A stretch of DNA of 64,000 bases from Aquabacterium sp. A7-Y (GTDB lineage Bacteria > Pseudomonadota > Gammaproteobacteria > Burkholderiales > Burkholderiaceae_C): NCBI RefSeq assembly GCF_026153205.1, contig NZ_JAPFBW010000026.1:32315-96314 (forward strand), given 5' to 3'. Numbering within the stretch: the first letter of the stretch is position 1; the number at the start of each line of letters is the position of its first letter. Below, piece by piece: positions 6,701 through 35,928 of this stretch. A model generated the notes under the pieces. The model was not told the origin of the DNA and made no database searches. It worked only from the letters and a program-made list of their open reading frames with translations. A program made the translations under genes and the position numbers.

Positions 6701-7867
6701 ATGCAAGCTGAGCGTGATTCCGCAGCCGGCCACTGGCCGCCTCCCGCCCTGCTATGGATGAGCGGGCTGACTGTACCCATGACCGTGGTGGCGTCCTTCC
6801 TCTGGGCGGCCCATGCGCGCCAGCCCGGCTGGGTCTGGCTGGTGCCGGCGCTGATCTACATCGTCATCCCGCTGGGCGACTGGCTGGTGGGCGTGAACCG
6901 GCGCAATCCGACGGCGGCGCAGAAGCAGTCGCGGAGCGCCGAGCGCTGGAGCCGCTGGGCGGTCGAGCTCTTCGTGCCCCTGCAGCTGGCCAGCGTGCTG
7001 GCCGGGGCCTGGCTGGTCTCCGTGCTGGAGCTGCCGCTCTGGGCGCTGCTGGGCGCCGGCCTGGCCGTGGGCAGCGTCAATGGCGTGGGCTTCATCGCCT
7101 CGCACGAGCTGCTGCATCGCCGCTCGCGCTGGGCGCAGTGGGGCGCGCGCTGGGCGCTGGCACCCACCTTGTACGGCCACTTCATGGCCGAGCATGTGCG
7201 CGGCCACCACAAGGCCGTGTGCACCCCGCCCGATCCCACCAGCTCGCGCATGGGCGAGAACTATTGGCGTTATCTCGTGCGCGCCCTGGTCACGGGCTTC
7301 CAGTCGGCCTGGCACATCGAGGCGCAGCGCCTGGGCAAGAAGGGCAAGCCGGTGTGGTCGCTGGAGAACGAGAACTTCCTGGCCTGGTCCGCCTCGCTGC
7401 TGCTGTTCGGAGGCCTGCTCCTGGCCTTCGGCTGGAGCATCCTGCCCTTCCTGCTGCTGCAGGCCGCCTATGGCGTCGTGCTGCTGGAGGTCACCAACTA
7501 CATCGAGCACTACGGCATGCTGCGCAAGAAGCTGCCCAACGGCGAGTACGAGCGCTTCACCCACGCCCATGCCTGGGACAGCAACCACCTGGTCTGCTCG
7601 CTCTTCATCTACCAGCTGCAGCGCCATGCGGACCACCATGTGAATCCCAACCGGCCCTACCACCTGCTGCAGTCCGAGGCCCAGACCCCGCAGCTGCCGG
7701 CCAGCTACGTCACCCTGATGCTGGTGGCCTATGTGCCGCCGCTGTGGTTCCGCCTGATGAACCCCATGGTCATCCGTCACCATGGCGGCGACCTCAGCCT
7801 CGCCAATGTGGACCCGCGCAAGCGCGAGCAGATGATGGCCCTGGCGGCCCGCTGGGAGCAGGCATGA
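6701..7867 (+). CDS. AlkB-like integral-membrane di-iron hydroxylase/desaturase
   Basis: HELLHR, EHVRGHH, NYIEHYG and LQRHADHH motifs. The ORF track starts at GTG 6692; ATG 6701 is more likely. Confidence 0.75.
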   Translation: MQAERDSAAGHWPPPALLWMSGLTVPMTVVASFLWAAHARQPGWVWLVPALIYIVIPLGDWLVGVNRRNPTAAQKQSRSAERWSRWAVELFVPLQLASVLAGAWLVSVLELPLWALLGAGLAVGSVNGVGFIASHELLHRRSRWAQWGARWALAPTLYGHFMAEHVRGHHKAVCTPPDPTSSRMGENYWRYLVRALVTGFQSAWHIEAQRLGKKGKPVWSLENENFLAWSASLLLFGGLLLAFGWSILPFLLLQAAYGVVLLEVTNYIEHYGMLRKKLPNGEYERFTHAHAWDSNHLVCSLFIYQLQRHADHHVNPNRPYHLLQSEAQTPQLPASYVTLMLVAYVPPLWFRLMNPMVIRHHGGDLSLANVDPRKREQMMALAARWEQA

Positions 7868-7870
7868 GAC

Positions 7871-8114
7871 CCGCCAGGCCGCCCCGAAGGCGCTCGCACC
7901 GCAGTGCGCAGCACGGAGGTTACCCAATGAGCCCCGCCCGGCCGCCCCGAAGGGGCTCGCACCGCAGTGCGCAGCACGGAGGTTACCCAATGAGCCCCGC
8001 CCGGCCGCCCCGAAGGGGCTCGCACCGCAGTGCGCAGCACGGAGGTTACCCAATGAGCCCCGCCCGGCCGCCCGAAGGGGCTCGCATCGCAGTGCGAAGC
8101 ACGGAGGTTACCCA
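7871..8114. repeat. tandem repeat, 4 copies of a 62-63-bp unit, each containing GGAGG plus ATGAGC (the ribosome-binding site and start codon of the downstream gene)
   Basis: Direct reading: ATG at 7927, 7990, 8053 and 8115 with identical preceding ...gcaccgcagtgcgcagcacggaggttacccaATGagc. The last copy is 62 nt. Confidence 0.9.
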
Positions 8115-10241
8115 ATGAGCCGCGCCACCCTCAGCCAGCAGTGCCGCGATGCCGGCGACGCCTACTTTATGGCCATGGAGGCCCTGGGGCATGACGTGGG
8201 CATCGAGCTGCGCTGCACCCTGCGCCAGCCCGTGGATCTGGACCTGGCGCTGGCGGCCTTCGAGGCGCTGCTGCGCCGCTATCCGGCGCTGCGCGTGCGG
8301 CGCCAGCCCGACGCGCACGGCGAGGGCTGGTCCTGGCAGGCCCTGGACGAGGCCGGCGCGCTGGCGCTGTGGGAGCGCCAGGCCCGTGCCCTGCGCGATG
8401 GCCAGGCCGGTCCGGCCCTGGGCGAGGGCCTACCCTTGCTGCTGGTGGACCTGCAGGAGCGCACCCTGGTGTTCCGGTCCGACCACACCTTTGCCAATGG
8501 CCGCGCGGCCTTTGCCTGGATCGCCCGCTTCCTCGAACTGCTGCATGGCGAGCAGCCGGCAGCCCTGGCCGGCGCGCCGGCGGCCCGCGGGCCCGTGGCC
8601 TCGCTGCCGCGGGCGCTGGCGCAGTTCATGCGCCAGTCCTGGGCCCGGCGCAGCCTGGGGGCCCATCGGCGCGACCCCGGTGCGCGGCTGCGTCCGGCCG
8701 GGCCGCAGGAGGCCGGCTGGGTGAGCCGCGAATGGACCGTGCCCCTGGCCTCGCTGGAGGCCCTGCTGCAGGGTCATGGCCTGGGCAAGGGCGCGGGCTG
8801 GACGCAGGCGCTCAGCGAGGCGCTGTCCCAGCACCTGCTGGCCAGCCTGCCCGAGCTGCCGGGGCTGCCGCTGCAATGGGCCATCGATCTGCACGAGGCC
8901 TGCGGAGAACCCGTGACAGCCCAGGGCAACTACACGGCCCTGGTCAGCGCCTATGTGGGACGCGAGCACAGCCAGGCACAGCTGGAGCGCCTGATGCAGG
9001 ACGTGCGCCAGGGCCTGGGGCCCGCGCAGGCGCGGCTGATCCAGTTGCAGGCCGCCCGGCGGCCGGCCATGATCCGCTGGTTCTGCCAGAACCTGTGGCC
9101 GCGGCCGGACGGCGCGCCCCGGGCCGCGGCCATGGATCCCGTGCTGACCCTGTCCAATGTGGGCCAGCTGCAGGAGCCGGCCTTCGAGCAGTGGGTGGAC
9201 AAGGCCTCGTTGTGGACCCGCACGCCCTCCGTCTACCTCTCCTGCACGACGGTGGGCGCCCAGGCGACGCTGGCCCTGAGCTTCCCGCGCCAGCTCTTTG
9301 ACGAGGCCCGCCTCTGTGCCAGCCTGGAGGCCTGGGTGGCCCTTGTGCAGCAGCGCAGGGGAGCTGACGAGCATCCGGCCACGGCCCTTGCCGAGGAGCA
9401 TCCGCTGATGCCCCGCCACTTCCAGCTGGACCTGCAGCGCGGCCTGCCGCTGCACTGGAACGGCAGCCCCTTCCGCAGCCAGTTCTTCAATTCCGTGTCC
9501 CTGCTGCTGCCGGCCGGGGAGCGCTGGATCATCGACACGGTACGGCGCACCATCGAGACCCTGCCCGAGCCCCTGCGCAGCGAATGGAGCAGCTACGGGC
9601 GCGACTTTATCGCCCAGGAGTCCATCCACCGGGCCCTGCACCGCAAGTACAACGAGCAGACCACGGCCCAGGGGCTGCAGGACTGGATAGGCGGCAAGGT
9701 GGAGGAGCGCATCACCTGGGGCGAGAAGGGCACGCCCATCAACCAGCTGGCCTCCTCGGTGACCTTCGAGTACATCACGACGCTGTTCTGCACCCGCGTG
9801 ATCCGCGACCCGTCCTGGCTGGACGGGGCCGACCCGCAGATGGCCCGCCTGTGGCTGTGGCATGTCTGCGAGGAGCTGGAGCACAAGCATTTCGTGCTGG
9901 ACCTGTTCCGGGCCGCGGGCGGCGGCGAGTTGCGCCGTATCGCCTGGTTCATCTGGTTCTCCAGCTCCTTCATGAAGGACCTGCACTACCAGCTCTACCT
10001 GTCCCTGCGCGGCAGCGGCCTGCTGTGGCGCTGGCGCACCTGGCGCGATGCCGCGGTCTTCTACTTCGGCCGGCGCGGCATGACCTGGCTCTTCATAGGC
10101 GGCAGCCTGCGATTCCTCAGTCCCTGGTTCCGCCATCCCGAGGGTCCCGAGGACAGGCTGGCGCGGCAGTGGTTCCAGAGCAATCCGACGGCCTTCGTGG
10201 AAGGGCGCGCGGTCCCCTCGGCCGCAGGCAGCCGGGCATGA
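8115..10241 (+). CDS. two-domain protein: condensation/WS-DGAT-like acyltransferase N-domain (HxxxNG variant) fused to a PF10118 metal-dependent hydrolase domain
   Basis: N-domain has SDHTFANG in place of HHxxxDG. The C-domain is clearly paralogous to the 5243-6091 product (FFNSVSLLLP...GQESIHRALH...WHVCEELEHKHF). Confidence 0.65.
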   Translation: MSRATLSQQCRDAGDAYFMAMEALGHDVGIELRCTLRQPVDLDLALAAFEALLRRYPALRVRRQPDAHGEGWSWQALDEAGALALWERQARALRDGQAGPALGEGLPLLLVDLQERTLVFRSDHTFANGRAAFAWIARFLELLHGEQPAALAGAPAARGPVASLPRALAQFMRQSWARRSLGAHRRDPGARLRPAGPQEAGWVSREWTVPLASLEALLQGHGLGKGAGWTQALSEALSQHLLASLPELPGLPLQWAIDLHEACGEPVTAQGNYTALVSAYVGREHSQAQLERLMQDVRQGLGPAQARLIQLQAARRPAMIRWFCQNLWPRPDGAPRAAAMDPVLTLSNVGQLQEPAFEQWVDKASLWTRTPSVYLSCTTVGAQATLALSFPRQLFDEARLCASLEAWVALVQQRRGADEHPATALAEEHPLMPRHFQLDLQRGLPLHWNGSPFRSQFFNSVSLLLPAGERWIIDTVRRTIETLPEPLRSEWSSYGRDFIAQESIHRALHRKYNEQTTAQGLQDWIGGKVEERITWGEKGTPINQLASSVTFEYITTLFCTRVIRDPSWLDGADPQMARLWLWHVCEELEHKHFVLDLFRAAGGGELRRIAWFIWFSSSFMKDLHYQLYLSLRGSGLLWRWRTWRDAAVFYFGRRGMTWLFIGGSLRFLSPWFRHPEGPEDRLARQWFQSNPTAFVEGRAVPSAAGSRA

Positions 10242-26465: not shown

Positions 26466-27173
26466 ATGCCCCGCACCCCTACCCCACCCGATGCAGACGC
26501 CCGTATCGGCAAGAAGATCGAATACGTCGCCCGTCGCCTGGGCGATCACCTGCAGGCCGAAGGCTTCGAGCGGCATGGCCGCACCCTGGTGCGGACGCGC
26601 GGCGAGGGGCACGGGCTGCACCGGCAGATCCTCCACCTGCAGGGCAGCAAGTGGAACGAGGGCAGCTACGGGGGCTTCTACGTTGCGCTGTCGGTGCTTT
26701 TCCCCAAAGTGAACGCCAGCGTCGCGACCATGCCCTCCCAGGCATGGCGGGCCGATGGCGCCGACTCGATCGACGAGGCAGCGGGGCAGGTGCGCGAGCG
26801 CCTGCACGAGGTGTTGCCGCCCGAAGGCCGGGCCTGGCCGGGCTGGCACGACTTCGGCGAGGTGCGCATCGAGAAGCACTGCGACCTTGACGCCCTGGCG
26901 TCCGACCTGCACGGGCTCCTCATGCAGGGCGCACTGCCCTGGTTCGAACGCCACGGCCGGCTCGAAGCGGTCCGCGATGGCGCCGGCATGCTGGGTGGCA
27001 ACATGCTGGACGTCCTGTGCGCCGCCGCATGGCTGGGGCCTGACGGCGACGCTGAACGTCTGCTGGCGCAGTTTGCGCCGAGGCTGAAGGAAGGCCGTAT
27101 TGCACCGGTCAACGAGCTGGCCGCGTGGCTGCGCTCGCTGGCGTTGGACCCGGCGCCGCTGCTCGGCGCCTAA
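26466..27173 (+). CDS. DUF4304 domain protein
   Basis: Family-like pattern (IGKKIEYVARRL...GFERHGRTL...). The ORF track begins 45 codons too early. Confidence 0.55.
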   Translation: MPRTPTPPDADARIGKKIEYVARRLGDHLQAEGFERHGRTLVRTRGEGHGLHRQILHLQGSKWNEGSYGGFYVALSVLFPKVNASVATMPSQAWRADGADSIDEAAGQVRERLHEVLPPEGRAWPGWHDFGEVRIEKHCDLDALASDLHGLLMQGALPWFERHGRLEAVRDGAGMLGGNMLDVLCAAAWLGPDGDAERLLAQFAPRLKEGRIAPVNELAAWLRSLALDPAPLLGA

Positions 27174-27278
27174 GGATTCACCGGTTCGCACCTCTCTCCG
27201 GGAGGCCGAGATGCGTTCGGCGTCCCCCAACTTGAGGCCTGACCCAGGTCGCAAGCACAGATACAAGGCCCTGAAGCT

Positions 27279-28181
27279 TCACAAGGGCCCGCGCATCAGC
27301 GAAACCACCACCTCCCGAAGCCAGCGATGACCCGCGTGGCCGTGGCTGCGCTCGTGCCAGACCATTCCCACCGGAAAACCCTCCACCGGAATCGGAGGAG
27401 CGACGCTCTTCAGCTTGCCGGAGCGGCCGGCGACCAGCCGCTCTGGAACGAGGGCCACGAAGTCGGACTGCGACACGATCTCGGGCACGGACAGGAAGGA
27501 CGCCGCGGACAGCACCACCTTGCGACGCAGGCCCAGGGCCGCGAGCGTCTCATCCACAGGCGTGGTGAAACCTCCGGCCAAGGAAACGATCACGTGCTCC
27601 AGTCGGACAAACTCCCGGGCCGTCATCCGCTCCTTGAGCGCAGGATGGTTGCGACGGCCGATCAACACGTACCGTTCGTCGAACAGATGCCTGCTGCGCA
27701 GACTCCGCGGGGCAGCGTCGGGGGTCATCAGCACAAGGTCGACATCCCCGCGCACCATCTGGGCCTCCAGCTGCTGCAGATCCAGGTGGCGCAAGGCCAC
27801 CCGCACCCCCGGCGCCTTCTTTCTGAGCGCGATCGCCAGCGGCTTGACCACCGCGACCTGGAGATAGTCGGTGCACGCGATCGTGACCGTCAACTCGGCC
27901 TTCGATGGCTCGAAGCGTTTGTGCTCCTCGACGGCGGCGCGCACCTGATCGAGCGCCAGGCGAAGCGGGCCGAGCAGGTCGAGCGCCTTTGCGGTCGGCG
28001 TCATGCCCCGCTGCGCCGGGATCAGCAGCGTGTCCTCGAAGAGGTCGCGCAACCGGCTCAGTTGAGCGCTCACCGCCGGTTGGCTCAAGTGCAGACGGGC
28101 GGCCGCCTTGGTGACGTTCTGCTCCACGAGCAAGGCCTCCAGCGTCACGAGGAGGTTGAGGTCAAGCCGCTTGCTATCCAT
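27279..28181 (-). CDS. LysR-family transcriptional regulator
   Basis: N-terminal HTH (LNLLVTLEALLVEQNVTKAAARLHLSQPAVSAQLSRLR) plus substrate-binding domain. Divergent from the quinone reductase gene. Confidence 0.85.
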   Translation of the reverse strand: MDSKRLDLNLLVTLEALLVEQNVTKAAARLHLSQPAVSAQLSRLRDLFEDTLLIPAQRGMTPTAKALDLLGPLRLALDQVRAAVEEHKRFEPSKAELTVTIACTDYLQVAVVKPLAIALRKKAPGVRVALRHLDLQQLEAQMVRGDVDLVLMTPDAAPRSLRSRHLFDERYVLIGRRNHPALKERMTAREFVRLEHVIVSLAGGFTTPVDETLAALGLRRKVVLSAASFLSVPEIVSQSDFVALVPERLVAGRSGKLKSVAPPIPVEGFPVGMVWHERSHGHAGHRWLREVVVSLMRGPL

Positions 28182-28291
28182 GCGATGGATAGTAGCCAAT
28201 CCATCTTCCGATTTCACCAATGGGCGGCTGCCGGCCAGACTGGCGCCATGGATCACCTGCTTCTATCAGGAGCGCCTCAGGAGAGTTGTCG

Positions 28292-29098
28292 ATGAAAAAG
28301 GTCTTGATCGTTTTTGCCCATCCGGAGCCCACATCCTTGAACCACCAGCTGGTGGAAACGGCCGTACATGTCTTGCAGCAAGATGGACACGAGGTGCTGC
28401 TGTCCGACCTTTACAGCATGGGCTGGAAAGCCGTCTTCGACGAGCAGGACTTCCCCCTTCGGGCTCATCCGCAGCGACTGTCGTTCATCGAGGAGTCGGG
28501 CCACTCGTACGCGGTGGGACGGCAGGCGCCCGACATCGCCGCGGAGCAGCAGAAGGTGCTGGCCGCCGACGCATTGATCCTCCAGTTCCCGCTGTGGTGG
28601 TTCGGCATGCCGGCCATCCTCAAGGGCTGGATCGATCGCGTCTGGGCCCGCGGGCTGGCCTACGGCTACGAGGGCGCGGGCAACCGCTACCGCTATGGCG
28701 ACGGCGCATTCAAGGGCAAGCGGGCCCTGGTGTCTGTCACGGTCGGCGGCCCCGCGGTGGACTACTCGCCGCGCGGCATCAACGGTCCGCTAGAGCAATT
28801 GCTCTTCCCGATCACCCACGGCACGCTCTTCTACCCCGGGATGGACGTGCTGCCTGTCCACGCCGTCTATGGCGCCGCGCAGCTGAGCGCTCAGGGAGCC
28901 GAGGTGGCCAAGGCGCAATGGGCAGCGCGACTCGAGCGGATTTTCGATGACACGCCGACCCCGTTCCGCCGCCAGAACGGCGGCGACTATCCGGACGGCC
29001 ATGTGCTCGCCCCCGATATCGCGAGCGGACGGAGCGGCTTGCTCGCCCACGTCGCAGACCAGGGGGCCTTGGCGCCAATGAAGCCTGCCGGCACCTGA
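28292..29098 (+). CDS. flavodoxin-like NAD(P)H dehydrogenase (quinone), NQO1/MdaB-like
   Basis: MKKVLIVFAHPEP... and LWWFGMPAILKGWIDRV motifs. AGGAGAG RBS. Confidence 0.8.
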   Translation: MKKVLIVFAHPEPTSLNHQLVETAVHVLQQDGHEVLLSDLYSMGWKAVFDEQDFPLRAHPQRLSFIEESGHSYAVGRQAPDIAAEQQKVLAADALILQFPLWWFGMPAILKGWIDRVWARGLAYGYEGAGNRYRYGDGAFKGKRALVSVTVGGPAVDYSPRGINGPLEQLLFPITHGTLFYPGMDVLPVHAVYGAAQLSAQGAEVAKAQWAARLERIFDDTPTPFRRQNGGDYPDGHVLAPDIASGRSGLLAHVADQGALAPMKPAGT

Positions 29099-29181
29099 AC
29101 GAGCCGCGCCAGAGCGGACATCCGTCCTCATCCTTGAGCCGAGCGCCTTGGCAGACAACAAATCCGACATACGGCCCGGCT

Positions 29182-29790
29182 TCACCGCGGCTCGGAGAAT
29201 CGGACCGACGAGAAGAAGACATCGAACGCGCCTTCGTTCTGCCTGTACGCTGCCGTTGCCTTCGCAGCGCCGCGCGTAGAGGCAGAACCGCATTGGACGT
29301 TCCAGGCATAGCCCGGGGTTTGGGAAAGGTAAGTCTTCGAGACGTAGTCGGCCGTGCTTGCACCCGTTCTTTCCGATGAAGTCGAAGCGGCCCAGTAGGC
29401 AAGGCTGTCCCCCAGCATCGCCTGACCATGGGCCGTTATAGCGACGGGAACCCCTGTGTGGCTGCCGAGGCGGTCGGCAAAGCCTGCTGCGTCGAGAGGC
29501 CGGCTGGCATAGGCGTCGTTCAGCTCCTGCTGGGTGTACTTGCGGAAACGCGCAGGCAGTTCATGTCTGTCGATGCGACACCGCACGGCCACAGTAGCGT
29601 CGCTGTCACTTGCCGGCCTGATGGACACGCCAACACGCCCCGGCTCCTCCTTGACGTGATGTTTCCAGCGGTCAGGAACCGAGAACGCGACACCGACAGC
29701 GGGAAGCGATACATCCCCTGCATCGGCATGAGCGTGAGCAAAGAGGGCGACGACGATCGCGAAGGCGTGATGGCAGGTGGGGGGAGGCAC
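29182..29790 (-). CDS. hypothetical secreted protein
   Basis: N-terminal signal-peptide-like segment. No recognised domain. Confidence 0.4.
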   Translation of the reverse strand: MPPPTCHHAFAIVVALFAHAHADAGDVSLPAVGVAFSVPDRWKHHVKEEPGRVGVSIRPASDSDATVAVRCRIDRHELPARFRKYTQQELNDAYASRPLDAAGFADRLGSHTGVPVAITAHGQAMLGDSLAYWAASTSSERTGASTADYVSKTYLSQTPGYAWNVQCGSASTRGAAKATAAYRQNEGAFDVFFSSVRFSEPR

Positions 29791-29981
29791 AGCAAACTCT
29801 CCGGTGGGGCGTCTCCGTCAATAGGCTGACGCCAAAGCCGTTGATTCTGCTCGGCCCAAGGCCAGTGCGCAAACGCCGAGCCCATTCCCTTGAGCGGAAC
29901 ACTGGCGGCATCAGGTCTTGGTCGGGTCAGCGGTGTGTGTGGTCAGGCTGATACGCATCGAAAAAGGATGGCCGCACCTGC

Positions 29982-30010
29982 TTGACGTAAAAGTGAAGAG
30001 TCTTTACAGT
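29982..30010 (+). promoter_or_regulatory. sigma70-like promoter TTGACG-N17-TACAGT
   Basis: Read directly. There is no annotated gene downstream other than a 63-codon GTG ORF. Confidence 0.4.
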
Positions 30011-30290
30011 TCGCCTTCTCGCTGCAGTGAATGCGGCGAGGACGACTTCAAAACATCCCAACACCGAAGAGTTCATCGTGCACCGCCAAGGCCACATCGC
30101 AAACAGCTCACTGCCCCTGCAGGGCCAGTGCCGGTTCGTGCGCGCCGCCTCTGGCAAGGCCAAGGCGGTCCTCACGTTGAACGAAAAACGGCATCCGCTC
30201 CAGAGCCAGCGAGCGACTTGGTCGCTGGGCGACGAGGATGGGAAACATCCGGGCGAGGGAGGCGCGTAAGGCGCACACCCTCCACTCGAT

Positions 30291-30324
30291 CACAGGTCGA
30301 GGCCCGGATTCCGAAAGGATCCGG
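30291..30324 (+). terminator. rho-independent terminator (GGCCCGGATtccgaaaggATCCGGGCC plus T6)
   Basis: Strong GC stem followed by TTTTTTG. Confidence 0.65.
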
Positions 30325-30474
30325 GCCTTTTTTGCTTTTCCGAGCCGGTCGGCAACCGGCTCACTGCCGCGTCCCACGCAGGACGCACCGGTGCGCCATG
30401 GCGCACCGGACTGCTCTTTGACAAGTTGCCGCGAACACGCCTGCACCACTGGGTGCGGCCCGTGTTCGCACTCA

Positions 30475-30550
30475 GCGGATATAGCTCAGCAGGCAGCGCC
30501 CGGTCACGCCATGGCCGAGGCCCCGAGTTCGATGCCCGGTATCCGCTCCA
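30475..30550 (+). tRNA. degenerate tRNA-like element (cloverleaf with GCC anticodon, C33, one mismatch in the D stem and one in the T stem, CCA encoded); probable tRNA pseudogene
   Basis: Hand-folded: acceptor GCGGATA/TATCCGC, D arm GCTC..GCGC, anticodon stem CGGTC/GGCCG with loop ACGCCAT, T loop TTCGATG. Confidence 0.4.
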
Positions 30551-30644
30551 TGACATCTCATTGCGGGTGTGTTCCGGTGCGCTTGCGCAGCGAGAGCACT
30601 TCACGGCCGGGAACCGCGGTCGTGCTGGAGCACAGCCGCAATGA

Positions 30645-30848
30645 AATCGCGACCCCCACGTCGACGAGCACGTGTTCCGCTTCGCGCAGCACTGGGCGGA
30701 CACCTGGTGCTCGAACCCGGCGTTCTGGCTCGAGGTGGCCGACACGCCAAACGGATTGAAGCTTCTGGAGATCAACGCCATCAACTCCAGTGGCTTCTAC
30801 GCCTGCGACATGGGGAAGTTCGTGAACGCCATCAATGCCCTGGTCTGA
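30645..30848 (+). pseudogene. C-terminal gene remnant (about 67 codons, no start), ATP-grasp-like C-terminus
   Basis: Frame-0 translation ...FWLEVADTPNGLKLLEINAINSSGFYACDMGKFVNAINALV* with an in-frame stop immediately upstream. Confidence 0.3.
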
Positions 30849-31061
30849 AGGAGCCGTCCGTGCGCTCTTTCCTGCCTGCGGCGGGTATGCCGAAGGAATC
30901 GCGCCTCAGTGGATGCACTGCAGGCGCTCATGAATCTGCTGTGGAAGGCGATCGCTCACAGGCCAGGGGCTCGGGCTGATGCTCTGCCCCGCCGGTGTGC
31001 GGTGTCCGGACCGCAAGTCTGTCGTCGCCGCACATGCCGCGCCGCCGGAAGCAGCCGATAC

Positions 31062-31113
31062 GGGTCATCGAGGGTTCGCACTGCAAGGTGCCGGGTTCGA
31101 CTCCCGGATGACC
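31062..31113 (+). other. tRNA 3'-half-like fragment (T arm GCCGGGTTCGACTCCCGG flanked by GGTCATC/GATGACC)
   Basis: Read directly. Does not form a complete cloverleaf. Confidence 0.3.
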
Positions 31114-31117
31114 GAAA

Positions 31118-31190
31118 GCTTGGATAGCTCAGTGGGTAGAGCAACGCACACCTCATGCGTCTGTCACGGGTTCGACTCCCGTTCCAAACC
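31118..31190 (+). tRNA. degenerate tRNA-like element (perfect D and T arms; anticodon loop CACCTCA with A33; acceptor mismatch; no CCA); probable pseudogene
   Basis: Hand-folded: GCTTGGA-TA-GCTCAGTGGGTAGAGC-A-ACGCA/CACCTCA/TGCGT-CTGTC-ACGGGTTCGACTCCCGT-TCCAAAC. Confidence 0.4.
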
Positions 31191-31432
31191 AGCAAGGGCC
31201 GCAAGGCCACCCGCCGAACGTGGGCCGCAGGATGGGCCCATCAGCGGCGGCCGCTCCGCACGACGGGCAAGCGGGGCTCCGCGTCCAGGGCCAGCCGAGG
31301 CGGTCTCGATCGGGAGGGAGACCGCCGACGCGCACCCTGGCACCCGGGCCCTGGCATTCGTCGTCCGCGGCCGCTGCTGTAACGGCACCCATTTCATAAC
31401 AACCGACACGCCAGACCACAAGGAGAACCGAC

Positions 31433-32569
31433 ATGAAGATCAAGCGTGTGACCGTCAAGAAAAACGAGCGCGGCCTGCTGCTGCGCAACGGAGATTTCGA
31501 GCGCGTGCTGCAGCCGGGCACGCACTGGCTGTTCGACGGCATGGACCAGCTGCGCGTGGAACTGTTCGCACAGGAACAGCCCGCGTTCACCCATGCGCTG
31601 GTGGACTACCTGATGGCCAAGGAGCCCGAGGTGGTCACCGCCGAGTTCGTGCGCGTGGAGCTCAACGAACACCAGGTGGGCCTGCGCAGCGAGAACGGCG
31701 TGCTGGTCGAAGTGCTGCCGCCGGCGACCCGCAAGCTGTACTGGAAGGGGTTGGTGGATGTTCGGGTGGAGGTGATCGACATCGCCGACTCGGCCGAAGC
31801 GCCGGCGTCGGTGGTGGCGCGCCTGGTGCAGACCCAGCTGCGTCAGCGTGCCGTGCAAGGACTGGCCGGCGTGCTGCAGGTGCAGGTGCCCGAGTACGGC
31901 GCCGGCATCGTGTGGATCGACGGCAAGATCGCCCGCGTGCTGGGGCCCGGCTCGTACGCCTTCTGGAAGTTCAACCGCAACGTCGTGGTGGAGCTGGTGG
32001 ACCTGCGACTGCAGGCGGTGGAGGTGTCGGGCCAGGAGATCCTGACCCGAGACAAGGTGGCCCTGCGCCTGAACCTCTCGGCCACCTGGCGCTTCACCGA
32101 CGTGCTCGCCGCCTACACCCGGCTGGCCAAGCCCGCGGAGCACCTGTACCGCGAGCTGCAGCTCGGCCTGCGTGCGGCCGTCGGCACGCGTTCGCTCGAC
32201 GACTTGCTGGAGAACAAGCGGGTGATCGACGAGGTCGTGACCGCCCAGGTACGCAGCAAGCTCTCGGCTTATGGGCTGGAGCTGGACGGCGTCGGCGTGA
32301 AGGACATCGTGCTGCCTGGCGAGATGAAGACCATCCTCGCCCAGGTGGTCGAGGCCGGGAAGTCGGCCGAAGCCAACGTCATCCGTCGCCGTGAAGAAAC
32401 CGCCGCGACCCGCTCGCTGCTCAACACGGCCAAGGTGATGGAGGACAACCCCGTCGCCCTGCGCCTGAAGGAGCTGGAGACGCTGGAACGCGTGGCCGAG
32501 CGCATCGACAAGATCTCGGTCTTCGGCGGTCTGGACCAGGTGCTCAACGGTCTGGTGAAGCTGCGTTGA
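31433..32569 (+). CDS. SPFH/band-7 (stomatin/prohibitin-like) domain protein
   Basis: 378 aa with SPFH-like core and coiled-coil C-terminus. AGGAGA RBS. Confidence 0.75.
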   Translation: MKIKRVTVKKNERGLLLRNGDFERVLQPGTHWLFDGMDQLRVELFAQEQPAFTHALVDYLMAKEPEVVTAEFVRVELNEHQVGLRSENGVLVEVLPPATRKLYWKGLVDVRVEVIDIADSAEAPASVVARLVQTQLRQRAVQGLAGVLQVQVPEYGAGIVWIDGKIARVLGPGSYAFWKFNRNVVVELVDLRLQAVEVSGQEILTRDKVALRLNLSATWRFTDVLAAYTRLAKPAEHLYRELQLGLRAAVGTRSLDDLLENKRVIDEVVTAQVRSKLSAYGLELDGVGVKDIVLPGEMKTILAQVVEAGKSAEANVIRRREETAATRSLLNTAKVMEDNPVALRLKELETLERVAERIDKISVFGGLDQVLNGLVKLR

Positions 32570-32593
32570 GCACGCTCCGGGATGCAGCTTGCA

Positions 32594-32619
32594 GGGCGCC
32601 GGAAGGCGCCCTTTTTTTC
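32594..32619 (+). terminator. rho-independent terminator GGGCGCCggaaGGCGCCC plus T7
   Basis: Immediately after the SPFH gene stop. Confidence 0.7.
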
Positions 32620-32685
32620 TTGTTGGCTCGGGGCGCCTCTACACTGCCGGTATCCAGGAACATCGAGACAGGGAGAAACCTCGCG

Positions 32686-32910
32686 ATGCAGGCGCCAAAT
32701 GTCCCGCCGGGCCGCTACCGGCACTACAAGGGCCAGTTCTACGAAGTCATCGGCGTTGCGCGCCATTCCGAAACCGAGGAGTGGCACGTGGTCTACCGAA
32801 CGCTCTATGGCGACATGAGCCTGTGGCTCAGGCCGGCCTCGATGTTCACGGAATCGGTCGAGGTGGACGGCCGGCAAATCCCCCGCTTCGAGCGCGTGGA
32901 CGACCGGTAG
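32686..32910 (+). CDS. DUF1653 domain protein
   Basis: YRHYKGQFYEVIGVARHSETEEWHVVYRTLYGD pattern. GGGAGA RBS. The track ORF over-extends the N-terminus. Confidence 0.6.
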   Translation: MQAPNVPPGRYRHYKGQFYEVIGVARHSETEEWHVVYRTLYGDMSLWLRPASMFTESVEVDGRQIPRFERVDDR

Positions 32911-32983
32911 CTGGCGCGCTTCCCTGCAATGGCACACCAGTCCCCCTGTCATCAGCCCGCGCCACGCCCCGCCGCCCCTTGCC

Positions 32984-33583
32984 ATGATGCCCGTGTCCGC
33001 CTTGCTCGCCGCCCTTCGGTCGGCGGGCCTCCCCACCGCTGACGCCGCCGCCGCGGCACTCGCCCCCCGTTTCGTGCCGCAGGATCTGGCCCGGTCCACG
33101 CCCTTGTTGCGCCAAGGGGAGGTCTGGCGCTTCGCCTTGGTCGTCGAGACCGGCCTGGTGCGCATGCACTTCCTGCGCCGTGACGGCCGCGAGTTCAACA
33201 AGAACTTTTTTGCCGAAGGCGCCTTGGTGTGCCCGGTGACACCCGCGATGTGGACCGGGCCTTCGCTGTTCGGCATCACCACCATCGAAGCCACGCGCAT
33301 CTGGCGCTGCGACGCCGAGGAGTTTCGCGAGGGTTTGGCCGCACACGGCCAGTGGTCGCCCTTGCAAAGCGAACTGCTGGTGAAGCTGCTGACGGGCAAG
33401 CTGCAGCGTGAACACGACCTGTTGGCGCTGGACGGCCGGCGGCGCTACGAGACCTTCTGCCAGCGCTTCCCGCATCTCGCCGCCCGCGTGCCGCTGGTGC
33501 ATCTGGCCACCTACCTGGGACTGACCGACGTGTCGCTGTCGCGCCTGCGTCGCGCTCAGCGCGAGAGCGCGCCCGTGGCCTGA
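32984..33583 (+). CDS. Crp/Fnr-family transcriptional regulator
   Basis: cNMP-binding-like domain plus C-terminal HTH (VPLVHLATYLGLTDVSLSRLRR). Confidence 0.7.
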   Translation: MMPVSALLAALRSAGLPTADAAAAALAPRFVPQDLARSTPLLRQGEVWRFALVVETGLVRMHFLRRDGREFNKNFFAEGALVCPVTPAMWTGPSLFGITTIEATRIWRCDAEEFREGLAAHGQWSPLQSELLVKLLTGKLQREHDLLALDGRRRYETFCQRFPHLAARVPLVHLATYLGLTDVSLSRLRRAQRESAPVA

Positions 33584-33664
33584 CCTGATCATTTGTTAAG
33601 GCACGGTCGGCCCGCTGCCACGAAGCTCTCGCTCAGCGCGCTGACGCTGAAAAAGGAGTGAACC

Positions 33665-34522
33665 GTGAAGCATCCAAGGACCGTCGCAGCCACCCTGGGC
33701 ACGGCCGCCGCCGTCGCCACCATCGCCGTGTGGGCGCTGTCAGCGCGTACCGAGGCGGACATCGCCGCGCACCGAAACGGTCTGGAGAAGCAGGGAGCGG
33801 CCGCGGCCAGCCGGCCGCCGAGCGCCGACCAGGTATCGGCCCTGCCGGCGCCGGTGCAGCGTTTTGTCCGATTCACCTTCCCCGGGCCCGTGCCCTCGTT
33901 CACACATGTCGAACTCGACATGGAGGGACGCTTCCGCCGCCCCAAGACGACCGATTTCATGCCGACGACGGCGAGCCAGTCGGTGGCAGTCGCCACGCCG
34001 GCCCTGGTGTTCGCGGCCACCACGCCTATCCTGCCTGGTGTGTGGGCGCGGGCCTACGACGCGTATGTCGACGGCAGGATGGAGATGAAAGCCAAGATCA
34101 TGTCGGCCGTCGCGGTGGTCGACGAGGTCTCGACGCCGGAGCTGGACCGCATTTCGCTGCGCCGCTGGCTGCTGGAGAGCCCGCTATATCCGATGGCCCT
34201 GTTGCCCGGCGGCCCGGTGCGCTGGGAGCCGGTGGACGAGCATCGCGCCCGTGCCGTGGTCGAGTACCGCGGCATGACGGCGTCCCTGATCGCGACCTTT
34301 GGGGCGGACGGCCGGCTGACGCGCTTCGACGCCGAAGCCGATGGCGACCTCGACACGCCGTATCACGGCTCGGGCGAGCATGTGGCACGCGACGACTACC
34401 AGCCGGTCGAGGGCATGATGATCCCGATGAAGTTTGTCATCGCGCGGGCAGCCGGCGGGCAGGTGTACCCGTTCTGGGAGGGCCGGGTCACGCGCATTCG
34501 TTTTGCCAAGGCCGGCGCCTGA
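33665..34522 (+). CDS. hypothetical membrane-anchored or secreted protein
   Basis: GTG start with AAGGAG RBS. N-terminal hydrophobic segment. Confidence 0.45.
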   Translation: MKHPRTVAATLGTAAAVATIAVWALSARTEADIAAHRNGLEKQGAAAASRPPSADQVSALPAPVQRFVRFTFPGPVPSFTHVELDMEGRFRRPKTTDFMPTTASQSVAVATPALVFAATTPILPGVWARAYDAYVDGRMEMKAKIMSAVAVVDEVSTPELDRISLRRWLLESPLYPMALLPGGPVRWEPVDEHRARAVVEYRGMTASLIATFGADGRLTRFDAEADGDLDTPYHGSGEHVARDDYQPVEGMMIPMKFVIARAAGGQVYPFWEGRVTRIRFAKAGA

Positions 34523-34609
34523 TCGCCGCGGGCGCCCTCGCGAGCGCCGCCGCGCTGAGAGGGCCGCCGCCCCCCCCCGTTCGCTCCGTGAGTGACCTCG
34601 GGCGATCCT

Positions 34610-35167
34610 TCAGGCGCGCTGCCTGCCTTGCGCCCTGCGACGAGCCAGCAAGGCAACGACGCCACCGAGCATCAGGGCATAGGTGCTGGGCTCCGGCACG
34701 GGCCCCAGCGGCGTGAAGACGTACCAGGCACCGCCGCCATAGTCACAGCCAAACTGGCAGGGTGTGGCAGTGACTCCGAGCGTATACGTCGTGTTCGCCT
34801 CCAGCAGCAGCCTCACCTGCCCCTCCGCGCGTTGACTTCCTGTCGTCGAATCCCTGTGCCCGATACCAGGGACGTAGCTGTCCCAGCTGATCTTCGCGCC
34901 GTTGAGCGTGAGCACTTCGAAGTTGTCGCCCGGGAAACCGATGTCCTCCAGCTTGAGCTGGACCCATTGTTGCTGCGCTCCGGTGACCAGACGCCAGGTG
35001 TCAATGTAAGGGTCACCCGGATAGATGGGGTCCCACCCCCATGTGATATAGCCGGCACCTCCGGCATAAGGGTCGACGTCGATCACGTCGCCGGTGAACT
35101 CCTGCGCAACCGCAGGAAGCATGAACACGGCGGCAGCAGCAGCCGCGATGATTTTTCTCACTGCCAT
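34610..35167 (-). CDS. PEP-CTERM sorting-domain secreted protein
   Basis: Signal peptide. C-terminal VPEPSTYALMLGGVVALLARRRAQ. AGAGAGGA RBS. Confidence 0.7.
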   Translation of the reverse strand: MAVRKIIAAAAAAVFMLPAVAQEFTGDVIDVDPYAGGAGYITWGWDPIYPGDPYIDTWRLVTGAQQQWVQLKLEDIGFPGDNFEVLTLNGAKISWDSYVPGIGHRDSTTGSQRAEGQVRLLLEANTTYTLGVTATPCQFGCDYGGGAWYVFTPLGPVPEPSTYALMLGGVVALLARRRAQGRQRA

Positions 35168-35332: not shown

Positions 35333-35352
35333 ATTTCTGTATTGACAGAAAT
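35333..35352. promoter_or_regulatory. operator-like palindrome ATTTCTGT-attg-ACAGAAAT overlapping a TTGACA -35 box upstream of the GbsR-type repressor gene
   Basis: Read directly. A second copy lies at 35957-35976. Confidence 0.5.
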
Positions 35353-35376
35353 ACCAGAAAGGTTAAGCTCAAGGCC

Positions 35377-35928
35377 ATGGAACTGACTGACACCGGACGT
35401 CGCTTCGTCCTGCATTGGGGCGAGATGGGTACCGCATGGGGCGTGAACCGGACAGTTGCGCAGATTCATGCCCTGCTGTTCTTTCACGGCCGGCCCTTGA
35501 ATGCCGAAGAGATCTCGGCGACCCTCGGTGCGGCACGCTCCAACGTGAGCACCAGCTTGAAGGAGCTGCAGAACTGGAACCTGGTGCGGGTGACCCATGT
35601 GCTGGGCGACCGACGCGACTTCTTCGAAACGTCGCATGACGTATGGGAGCTGTTCCGAACCGTGGTGCGCGAGAGAAAGCTGCGCGAGTTCGACCCCACC
35701 GTCCGGTTGCTTCAACAGCTCACTGCCCAGCCGGGCTTCGAGAATGAGCCGGCCGATGTACAGGACCGCATCCGAGAGACCCTGCGTTTCATGGAGGCGC
35801 TCGAGTCTTGGAGCAGTGAGATGTTGCGGCTCTCTCCTGGCACCCTTGAAAAGATGCTTCGGATGGGCGCCGCGGTGCAGCGCTTCCTGCGTCCCTCTGA
35901 AAGCATGGGCGCCGACACGACTCCCTAA
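35377..35928 (+). CDS. GbsR/MarR-type winged-helix transcriptional regulator
   Basis: GbsR-like N-terminus (GEMGTAWGVNRTVAQIHALLFF...PLNAEEISATLGAARSNVSTSLKEL...GDRRDFF). Confidence 0.7.
   Translation: MELTDTGRRFVLHWGEMGTAWGVNRTVAQIHALLFFHGRPLNAEEISATLGAARSNVSTSLKELQNWNLVRVTHVLGDRRDFFETSHDVWELFRTVVRERKLREFDPTVRLLQQLTAQPGFENEPADVQDRIRETLRFMEALESWSSEMLRLSPGTLEKMLRMGAAVQRFLRPSESMGADTTP

Follow-up and report, generated by a model that had tools for sequence, protein, structure and literature searches.

A partly dismantled tRNA-array locus in Aquabacterium retains a multi-domain tRNA-like RNA upstream of its SPFH gene

We analyzed a 64,000-nucleotide stretch of contig NZ_JAPFBW010000026.1 from Aquabacterium sp. 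A7-Y (hereafter the window), focusing on a cluster of transfer RNA (tRNA)-like elements and gene remnants that lies upstream of a gene for an SPFH/Band-7 protein. Two of these elements, a minihelix and a cloverleaf that a tRNA finder calls tRNA-Arg, are the central modules of one multi-domain RNA of about 350 nucleotides (nt), positions 30901-31248, which is structurally intact in the window. This little-studied RNA has about six domains: a stop-codon hairpin, a three-way junction, the minihelix, the cloverleaf and two 3' hairpins. In both its identity and its history, the region that contains it (29980-32620) is very likely a conserved Burkholderiales module that has suffered internal deletions. 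The window holds an eroded member of the known b7a-tRNA/Band-7 system and of the tRNA arrays known as L-arrays.

The comparison that carries this reading draws on 80 loci, found by searching species-representative genomes with the window's SPFH protein (75-89% identity), from Aquabacterium, Piscinibacter, Rubrivivax, Roseateles, Ideonella, Acidovorax and their relatives. In its full form the module runs from a promoter, a small leader open reading frame (ORF) and a terminator into a long tRNA array, and then through an HNH endonuclease gene, a structured RNA and the SPFH/Band-7 gene to a gene for an RtcB ligase. An ARAGORN survey of the first 60 loci found same-strand arrays of up to 20 tRNA genes upstream of SPFH, many of them opening with tRNA-Gly(GCC), followed by a gap of about 0.8-1.1 kb and, about 300 nt before SPFH, one final ‘tRNA’. 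The nominal anticodon of this last ‘tRNA’ varies by genome (GAU, CAU, CGU, CUC, AAC, CGA, UUU, CGC or undetermined). The locus L003 has a gene for an HNH endonuclease of 213 amino acids (aa) in the gap and an RtcB RNA ligase gene after SPFH, and tblastn over the 80 loci finds HNH in 49 and RtcB in 66; 40 of the 80 have a divergent 139-aa gene ahead of the array.

The window maps onto this layout in pieces. By blastn, 29980-30577 corresponds to the leader and first tRNA-Gly of relatives such as L035, L030, L003 and L002, and 30888-31390 to the last few HNH codons and the conserved intergenic RNA; the interval between them, 30578-30887, which contains a piece of an R2K gene, has no counterpart in the 80 relatives. 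Past the SPFH stop codon (32569) nothing aligns to the relatives except a short reverse-strand match to L018 at 35333-35649. The HNH, RtcB and 139-aa genes are all missing from the window by tblastn; at E<=50, a search for RtcB, the 139-aa gene and further HNH sequence returned only 11 C-terminal HNH codons, and RtcB similarity is absent from the whole 64 kb. Deletions have taken all array tRNAs but the first, the 5' two-thirds of the R2K gene and nearly all of the HNH gene, and rtcB and the 139-aa gene are gone. The initial annotation had suspected an island junction or integration hotspot and had proposed a synteny comparison; that comparison brought out the loss of the array, HNH, rtcB and 5' R2K sequence, and the region is neither junction nor hotspot but an internally deleted copy of one conserved operon-like locus. 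Erosion of this kind is frequent in the family. Of the 55 relatives whose flanks are complete, 43 have an adjacent RtcB and 12 have stubs of it or none, HNH is intact in 31, and array size runs from 0 to 20 tRNAs, with none at all in 23 loci.

The RNA upstream of the SPFH gene

ARAGORN finds exactly two tRNA-like genes in the window, 30475-30550 (Gly, GCC) and 31118-31190 (Arg, CCT), at the same coordinates as the two cloverleaves of the initial annotation (GCC with C33; loop CACCTCA with A33). The second is module 2 of the RNA. It scores 50.4 bits against the Rfam tRNA model (gathering score 29), and the family to which it belongs combines a short acceptor stem (TGGA/TCCA in most members) with an invariant D-arm, a 5-bp anticodon stem and a canonical T-arm. 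The acceptor stem has 4 base pairs in most orthologues; the window copy has 5 clean pairs, which ARAGORN stretches to 7 by way of a C2:A71 mismatch, and it carries the loop CACCUCA and no CCA. Upstream of it, module 1 (31062-31113) had been recognized as an acceptor and T-arm element, and the window indeed shows a perfect 7-bp stem, GGTCATC/GATGACC, around a canonical T-arm, CCGGG-TTCGACT-CCCGG. It is no mere fragment, as had been supposed, since it is a conserved module with heavy compensatory change: the stem sequence varies from genome to genome while pairing is kept (GGTCATC/GATGACC, GGTGATG/CATCACC, GAACGAT/ATCGTTC, GGGAATG/CATTCCT and others). Two T-loop motifs about 75 nt apart stand upstream of SPFH in nearly all relatives.

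The match of the window to the two modules exceeds chance. The first MAFFT alignments put the module-1 stem out of register, and the covariance model for modules 1 and 2 (R1) was built from 15 members, a homogeneous subset. R1 places the RNA at the expected position in all 78 loci with enough upstream sequence, and gives the window 101.6 bits (E 2.5e-21) in a family that ranges from 67 to 151; adjacent tRNA pairs reach at most 71. On the model-fitted alignment of the 52 best members, pairing holds in 98.5% of cells, and 22 of the 33 pairs have changed at both positions. The covariation score of 0.404 compares with 0.06-0.08 in slid controls, and none of 500 shuffles reaches it. An N-CCA sequence follows module 1 in 48 of the 52; the window has GAAAG and is the sole copy with GAAA.

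The anticodon loop of module 2 is the variable part. It occurs in 36 distinct sequences among the 52 members, with a length of 7 nt in 51 and U33 in 40, and A33 is peculiar to the window. The odd loop had been taken for decay, and a variable loop is instead typical of this RNA. In Acidovorax-type loci the whole anticodon arm of module 2 is swapped for a short GAAA (GNRA)-capped hairpin, and we therefore take it that the loop does not decode. We also observe that loci L061-L080 (Acidovorax, Delftia, Hydrogenophaga) carry this variant of the RNA about 300-400 nt upstream of SPFH, with RtcB kept and with neither HNH nor array tRNAs.

The RNA extends well beyond its tRNA-like core. In the relatives, the sequence from the HNH stop codon to module 1 is as conserved as the genes are. 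It begins with a hairpin (30901-30927) whose equivalent in relatives differs in sequence, and which is kept in the window with compensating substitutions though the HNH gene is lost. The three-way junction that follows was derived from a plain MAFFT alignment of 32 loci, and on that same alignment 94.6% of cells are paired and 22 of 37 pairs carry changes in both partners; covariation scores 0.392 there and 0.04-0.10 in slid controls, and no shuffle among 500 attains the former value. On the 3' side the inner pairs covary, and in the window one pair of the 31197-31208 hairpin has changed from U-A to C-G. All helices pair in the window copy, with one U:U mismatch in the 37 pairs of the 5' domain and no broken pair in modules 1 and 2. 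The intact helices, an HNH deletion that ends just short of the first RNA hairpin, and a compensated G-C to A-U change in the T-stem of module 2 together suggest continued selection on the RNA-SPFH pair.

A search of 29800-31500 with Rfam 15 at E<=10 returned tRNA and noise, with YrlA at 19.7 and mascRNA at 16.8 bits, far below gathering, and no HEARO match; these sub-gathering scores led us to reject membership in any curated Rfam family other than tRNA. A phage origin of the RNA was likewise rejected, R1 having no true member among 80 viral loci, and a scan of viral contigs with the 5'-domain motif gave mostly chance matches.

An eroded locus and its remnants

The coordinates of all features are collected below.

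Table 1. Features of the locus in the window (positions of the 64,000-nt stretch)
Feature	Position	Strand	Basis or remark
Array-leader promoter TTGACG-17-TACAGT	29982-30010	+	Overlapped by palindrome GTGAAGAgTCTTTAC, putative operator
Small leader ORF, 63 codons, GTG start, C-terminus HPGEGGA*	30078-30269	+	Conserved in relatives
Intrinsic terminator/attenuator, hairpin and T-run	30299-30335	+	Terminator scan; between leader ORF and first tRNA
Second leader hairpin	30388-30409	+	Terminator scan
Hairpin directly 5' of tRNA-Gly (GCGAACACG...CGTGTTCGC)	30428-30470	+	Aligned with relatives
tRNA-Gly(GCC), C33, first gene of collapsed array, probable pseudogene	30475-30550	+	ARAGORN, orthology
R2K_3 ATP-grasp C-terminal remnant	30645-30848	+	PF14243 positions 116-169 of 169
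Last ~11 codons of deleted HNH gene, stop codon mutated	30878-30913	+	Nucleotide homology resumes at 30888; alignment
First hairpin of SPFH-associated RNA, 11 bp	30901-30927	+	Read from sequence; spans HNH stop codon in relatives
5' three-way-junction domain	30934-31059	+	RNAalifold, 37 pairs
Module 1, minihelix: acceptor-like 7-bp stem, 8-nt linker, small GNRA-capped hairpin, T-arm	31062-31113	+	Pairing conserved
Module 2, tRNA-like cloverleaf (b7a-tRNA core)	31118-31190	+	ARAGORN ‘Arg-CCT’; Rfam tRNA
3' domain hairpin GGCC-GCAA-GGCC	31197-31208	+	Conserved in 25 aligned relatives as GGYC-GNRA-GRCC
3' domain hairpin, conserved internal loop GAACG/CAUCAG	31213-31248	+	Conserved in 25 aligned relatives
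SPFH/Band-7 gene, intact, stomatin-like, no membrane anchor seen	31433-32569	+	PF01145, E 1e-33
Intrinsic terminator directly after SPFH, at rtcB position of relatives	32593-32622	+	Terminator scan

The third tRNA-like element, the tRNA-Gly of the array, has fared differently from the RNA modules and is a decaying remnant, probably a pseudogene. Read by hand, its acceptor and anticodon stems are intact, CCA is encoded and the loop runs A32-C33-GCC-A37-U38; the D-stem has a U12:C23 and the T-stem an A52:C62 mismatch. Together with 12 aligned orthologues it shows 85% column-wise identity, and both broken pairs are kept in all 12, the changes A23->C and G52->A being peculiar to the window. The Rfam tRNA model does not report the element even at E<=10, and gives the L003 orthologue 51.9 bits. 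In ViennaRNA folds the cloverleaf, at -24.2 kcal/mol, loses to a non-cloverleaf minimum free energy (MFE) structure at -30.3 kcal/mol; all five orthologues tested fold as a cloverleaf or nearly so. The gene thus lacks both the U33 and the stable, model-recognized cloverleaf of a canonical elongator tRNA-Gly. We conclude that the cause of this decay is array collapse and not duplication of an attachment (att) site. The initial annotation's picture of decayed remnants thus holds for the tRNA-Gly, with two stem pairs lost and no cloverleaf MFE, and for the ATP-grasp piece discussed below. It fails for 31062-31113 and 31118-31190, to which its fallback, unusual and functional tRNA-like RNAs, applies instead, as it does not to the tRNA-Gly.

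C33 does not belong among the lesions of the tRNA-Gly, where it had been placed. The loop ACGCCAT occurs in 10 of the 13 aligned copies, the window included, and in 11 of the 14 Gly-GCC genes that ARAGORN finds in relatives; since it is common to most orthologues, C33 is a trait of the first array tRNA-Gly. U33 is near-universal in tRNAs. In the arrays of relatives L002-L060, C33 occurs in 37 of 295 tRNAs (13%), concentrated in Gly-GCC (11/14, where A32 and U38 may pair), Glu-UUC (11/27) and some His. It may be an adaptation by which spare tRNAs escape anticodon-loop nucleases, or a sign of non-decoding use.

The leader of the array is elaborate and conserved. Its near-consensus promoter is the only sigma-70-like site in 29800-32700 and is nearly invariant in 15 relatives, as is the setting of a palindrome, GT(G/A)AAGAnTCTTTAC, over it. 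The divergent 139-aa gene that flanks the promoter in 40 relatives, and that is missing in the window, encodes a putative regulator with no Pfam match and no demonstrated likeness to the Anabaena repressor TrcR. The leader ORF keeps its start context, an FVRA motif and a HPGEGxA-stop motif in relatives, with a variable middle, and the strong terminator hairpin at 30299-30335, which precedes the array in every case, recurs unchanged or almost unchanged in the loci of 16 relatives. The stem at 30428-30470 reads GCAAGACGA...TCGTCTTGC in relatives, so pairing is kept by way of double changes (alignment read directly); both leader hairpins, 30388-30409 and 30428-30470, keep their pairing in this manner. 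By its layout, the leader looks like a translation-sensing attenuator placed before a tRNA array. To its left, homology to relatives starts only at the promoter, at 29977, and a 202-aa ORF without a Pfam match (29182-29790, minus strand) that is not in the relatives' flanks lies directly beside the locus.

Two genes survive as remnants. The initial annotation rightly saw a start-less ATP-grasp C-terminus at 30645-30848: it is the last third of R2K_3 (PF14243, E 8e-5), and at 23.3 bits it stays below the gathering score of 26.3 and is not a complete domain. The frame runs from stop to stop with a strong coding signature, a GC content at third codon positions (GC3) of 0.90, and it cannot be complete because a stop codon stands directly upstream (30642-30644) and the tRNA-Gly ends 95 nt upstream. 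In the NCBI annotation, Aquabacterium sp. A7-Y has a 58-aa ‘ATP-grasp domain-containing protein’ with 98% identity to the remnant. By tblastn the fragment occurs in none of the 80 relatives' loci. A JGI contig (L086) has array tRNAs, a shorter remnant of the same gene (83.5% nucleotide identity to the window's over 79 nt) and then an intact HNH gene; the remnant is common to both loci, and therefore an R2K_3 gene once lay between array and HNH in their common ancestor. The closest full homologue found is an 86-aa stand-alone protein on T4-like phage contigs from the Logan metagenome (L081-L085), 61% identical to the remnant. Its neighbors are NAD synthase, PTH2, CoaE and other T4-like phage genes, and it is possible that phages carry the short form as a genuine protein, not as a truncated one. 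Of the HNH gene, the tail gives a weak tblastn match to residues 203-213.

The SPFH gene itself is whole. Its 378-aa product matches that of the 80 relatives over its full length (75-89% identity), GC3 is 0.90 and the best PDB matches are stomatin chains. It starts on the same strand as the RNA, 243 nt past the cloverleaf (RNA end 31248, SPFH start 31433). We note an N-terminal extension of about 150 residues (31433-31880) where stomatin has its membrane hairpin, and a resemblance of residues 7-41 to the start of an SPFH domain (a weak HflK match); these features suggest a partial internal duplication and a soluble protein.

Several loci elsewhere in the survey depart from the usual arrangement. 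L035 has an RtcB-like gene (7664-8845), 56% identical to the usual one, within its tRNA array and upstream of HNH, and no RtcB after SPFH. Two contigs of one Roseateles metagenome-assembled genome (MAG), L019 and L021, hold two copies of the SPFH-RNA-RtcB locus in one genome bin, and by comparison with that two-copy MAG the eroded copy in the window could be a redundant paralogue. An IMG/VR contig of 124 kb that is classified as viral (L120) has at its end, at positions 55-2690, a tRNA array and after it the beginning of the 5'-domain motif; it may be a provirus call that takes in such a locus.

Possible roles of the RNA

We tentatively propose that the RNA is a stable transcript that would bind an oligomer of the stomatin-like SPFH protein, forming a ribonucleoprotein (RNP). 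By its tRNA mimicry, such an RNP could bring in or display damaged tRNAs or the factors that handle tRNA, RtcB for example, during translational stress or RNA repair, in a manner perhaps analogous to Ro60 and Y RNA. In the window this pair persists without a neighboring ligase; since the RNA and SPFH also remain together without RtcB in about one fifth of relatives, their function is not likely to lie solely in assisting an adjacent ligase.

Several points weigh against this proposal and the identification beneath it. The RNP role is inferred from gene neighborhood only, and the equation of the RNA family with b7a-tRNA draws on a second-hand description. Without rtcB in the window, a local ligase-cofactor role cannot apply unless rtcB lies elsewhere in the genome. 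The covariation of modules 1 and 2 was counted on a model-fitted alignment, and the structure of the 5' domain was tested on the alignment from which it came. Finally, the window copy lacks the N-CCA that 48 of 52 members have and is the sole copy with A33, and thus it may be drifting after the loss of its partners.

It is conceivable that the conserved RNA is instead a cis-acting 5' leader of the SPFH(-rtcB) mRNA, for instance a tRNA-mimicking processing or attenuation element that tunes SPFH and RtcB expression. The RNA always lies on the same strand, 230-440 nt upstream of SPFH, it persists only together with SPFH, and the terminator scan finds no terminator between the two in the window. 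Set against these points, the spacer from RNA to start codon is poorly conserved and variable in length, and about six independently covarying helical domains with an encoded CCA end are more typical of stable RNAs; neither consideration is decisive, and we regard the cis-acting leader as unlikely. A role as decoy or sensor for tRNA-targeting nucleases (anticodon nucleases, contact-dependent-inhibition or toxin tRNases), with an anticodon loop that diversifies with the local threat, would fit a loop that keeps the tRNA format yet takes 36 sequences in 52 members. The link to spare tRNA arrays and a repair ligase, the atypical C33 loops in 13% of array tRNAs, and the ‘sponge’ role proposed for Anabaena array tRNAs (PMC8421152) would fit as well. 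However, the loop is dispensable where Acidovorax-type loci replace the arm with a short GNRA hairpin, its variability could be neutral, and no nuclease gene except HNH is consistently linked, so that we consider this role quite improbable.

Two further explanations fare much worse than the stable RNP. In favor of reading both ARAGORN calls as tRNAs that take part in decoding, the first a spare tRNA-Gly and the second a rare tRNA-Arg(CCU), one could point to the ARAGORN calls themselves, to the 50.4-bit Rfam score of the second, and to the encoded CCA and intact acceptor and anticodon stems of the first. Yet the ‘Arg’ orthologues are read by ARAGORN as Ile, Met, Thr, Glu, Val, Ser, Lys, Ala or ‘???’, the ‘Arg’ element has A33, no CCA and, in most orthologues, a 4-bp acceptor stem, and the Gly copy has two broken stems and goes unreported by the tRNA model; this leaves the idea scarcely credible. 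The initial annotation's own account, which takes the three elements for tRNA genes in decay, or for att sites duplicated by integrative elements, at a former island boundary or an integration hotspot, has in its favor a truly degenerate tRNA-Gly, the R2K and HNH gene remnants, and the view that L-arrays spread horizontally (PMC8421152). But 27000-35000 holds no att-like direct repeats of tRNA ends, with only chance matches for the tRNA 3' halves, and, as the initial annotation had itself remarked, there is no adjacent integrase, none being found among the 10 ORFs scanned (24.9-34.5 kb). The minihelix and cloverleaf are moreover conserved in position and structure in 78 of 78 relatives, with compensatory changes, and the missing DNA is internal to one conserved locus. 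We therefore hold this account to be very improbable.

Relation to known systems

Taken alone, the window is a modest result, as it is mostly a dismantled copy. Its value lies in the family to which it belongs. The SPFH-associated RNA has no Rfam model, and tRNA finders assign its cloverleaf a different tRNA type in each genome (Arg in the window; Ile, Met, Thr, Val elsewhere), which pollutes tRNA inventories. A defined RNA, with a covariance model and boundaries, combined with a natural series of eroded loci offers a means to ask which parts of the system depend on which. Most likely to be new are the architecture of the RNA beyond its cloverleaf and the joining of array, HNH, RNA, SPFH and RtcB in one compact Burkholderiales locus.

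The closest known counterpart is b7a-tRNA, a predicted and unvalidated tRNA-like noncoding RNA that adjoins a Band-7 gene, usually with RtcB, as described in bioRxiv 10.1101/312249, which cites Burroughs & Aravind 2016. The window cloverleaf lies directly upstream of SPFH on the same strand, is tRNA-like by both Rfam and ARAGORN, and shares homology and structure with its counterparts before SPFH in other genomes. As far as that second-hand description goes, the window fits it in every respect but one, the RtcB gene of the same locus, which is missing here and adjacent in 43 of 55 relatives. A further difference is that the window cloverleaf is one of about six conserved domains. The published b7a-tRNA might be only the core of a six-domain RNA of about 350 nt, the obligate partner of a soluble stomatin-like SPFH protein, in a self-sufficient RNP whose role would perhaps be to sense or decoy attacks on tRNA rather than simply to assist RtcB. 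Self-sufficiency is suggested by the intact survival of RNA and SPFH where RtcB, HNH and the tRNA array have all gone, in the window and about one fifth of relatives. We consider this extended reading possible and rather doubtful; such an RNP would be a bacterial counterpart of Ro-Y RNA or vault particles.

YrlA and the other bacterial Y RNAs offer a second parallel. They carry a tRNA-mimicking domain, are encoded beside Ro60 (Rsr) and RtcB in rsr-yrlBA-rtcBA operons, and have been proposed as RNA-repair cofactors (10.1101/312249). The Burkholderiales system likewise places a structured tRNA-mimicking RNA next to a scaffold protein and, usually, RtcB, and where modules 1 and 2 join, the order T-arm, spacer, D-arm gives a weak match to YrlA (RF02553). 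The partner is SPFH, however, and not Ro60/TROVE, no TROVE domain being found among the 10 ORFs scanned, and the window RNA has two tandem tRNA-like modules where YrlA has one permuted module closed by a Ro-binding stem. Identity with YrlA was rejected at 19.7 bits against a gathering score of 69.

The tRNA array ties the locus to the L-arrays, which occur in many phyla, all classes of Proteobacteria among them. In cyanobacteria these arrays have links to HNH and rtcB genes, and translational stress induces L-arrays (PMC8421152). The shared features are supernumerary tandem tRNAs with an HNH endonuclease and rtcB, and relatives carry 1-20 such tRNAs in this same locus. The window differs in keeping a single damaged tRNA of the array type, where relatives have up to 20 in close same-strand spacing, and about 11 terminal codons of a linked HNH gene; its leader and first gene are nonetheless orthologous to those of intact arrays (29980-30577 alignment), with promoter, terminator and hairpins conserved. 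It differs as well from tRNA att sites at island borders, which likewise place a degenerate tRNA beside gene fragments: the 10 ORFs scanned include no integrase, no tRNA 3' end is duplicated, and the degenerate tRNA is orthologous to the first array gene and not a partial duplicate. In Anabaena, the repressor TrcR controls a tRNA array, rtcB, two HNH genes and a slipin/SPFH gene (PMC10272220). The parts list is the same in Burkholderiales, but there the parts are contiguous and share a leader with a small ORF and a terminator. The Burkholderiales locus thus joins spare tRNA arrays, HNH, SPFH, RtcB and a large tRNA-mimicking RNA, where one Anabaena repressor co-regulates the same parts, and work on cryptic tRNA operons and translational stress is thereby tied to a predicted Band-7 RNA-repair system.

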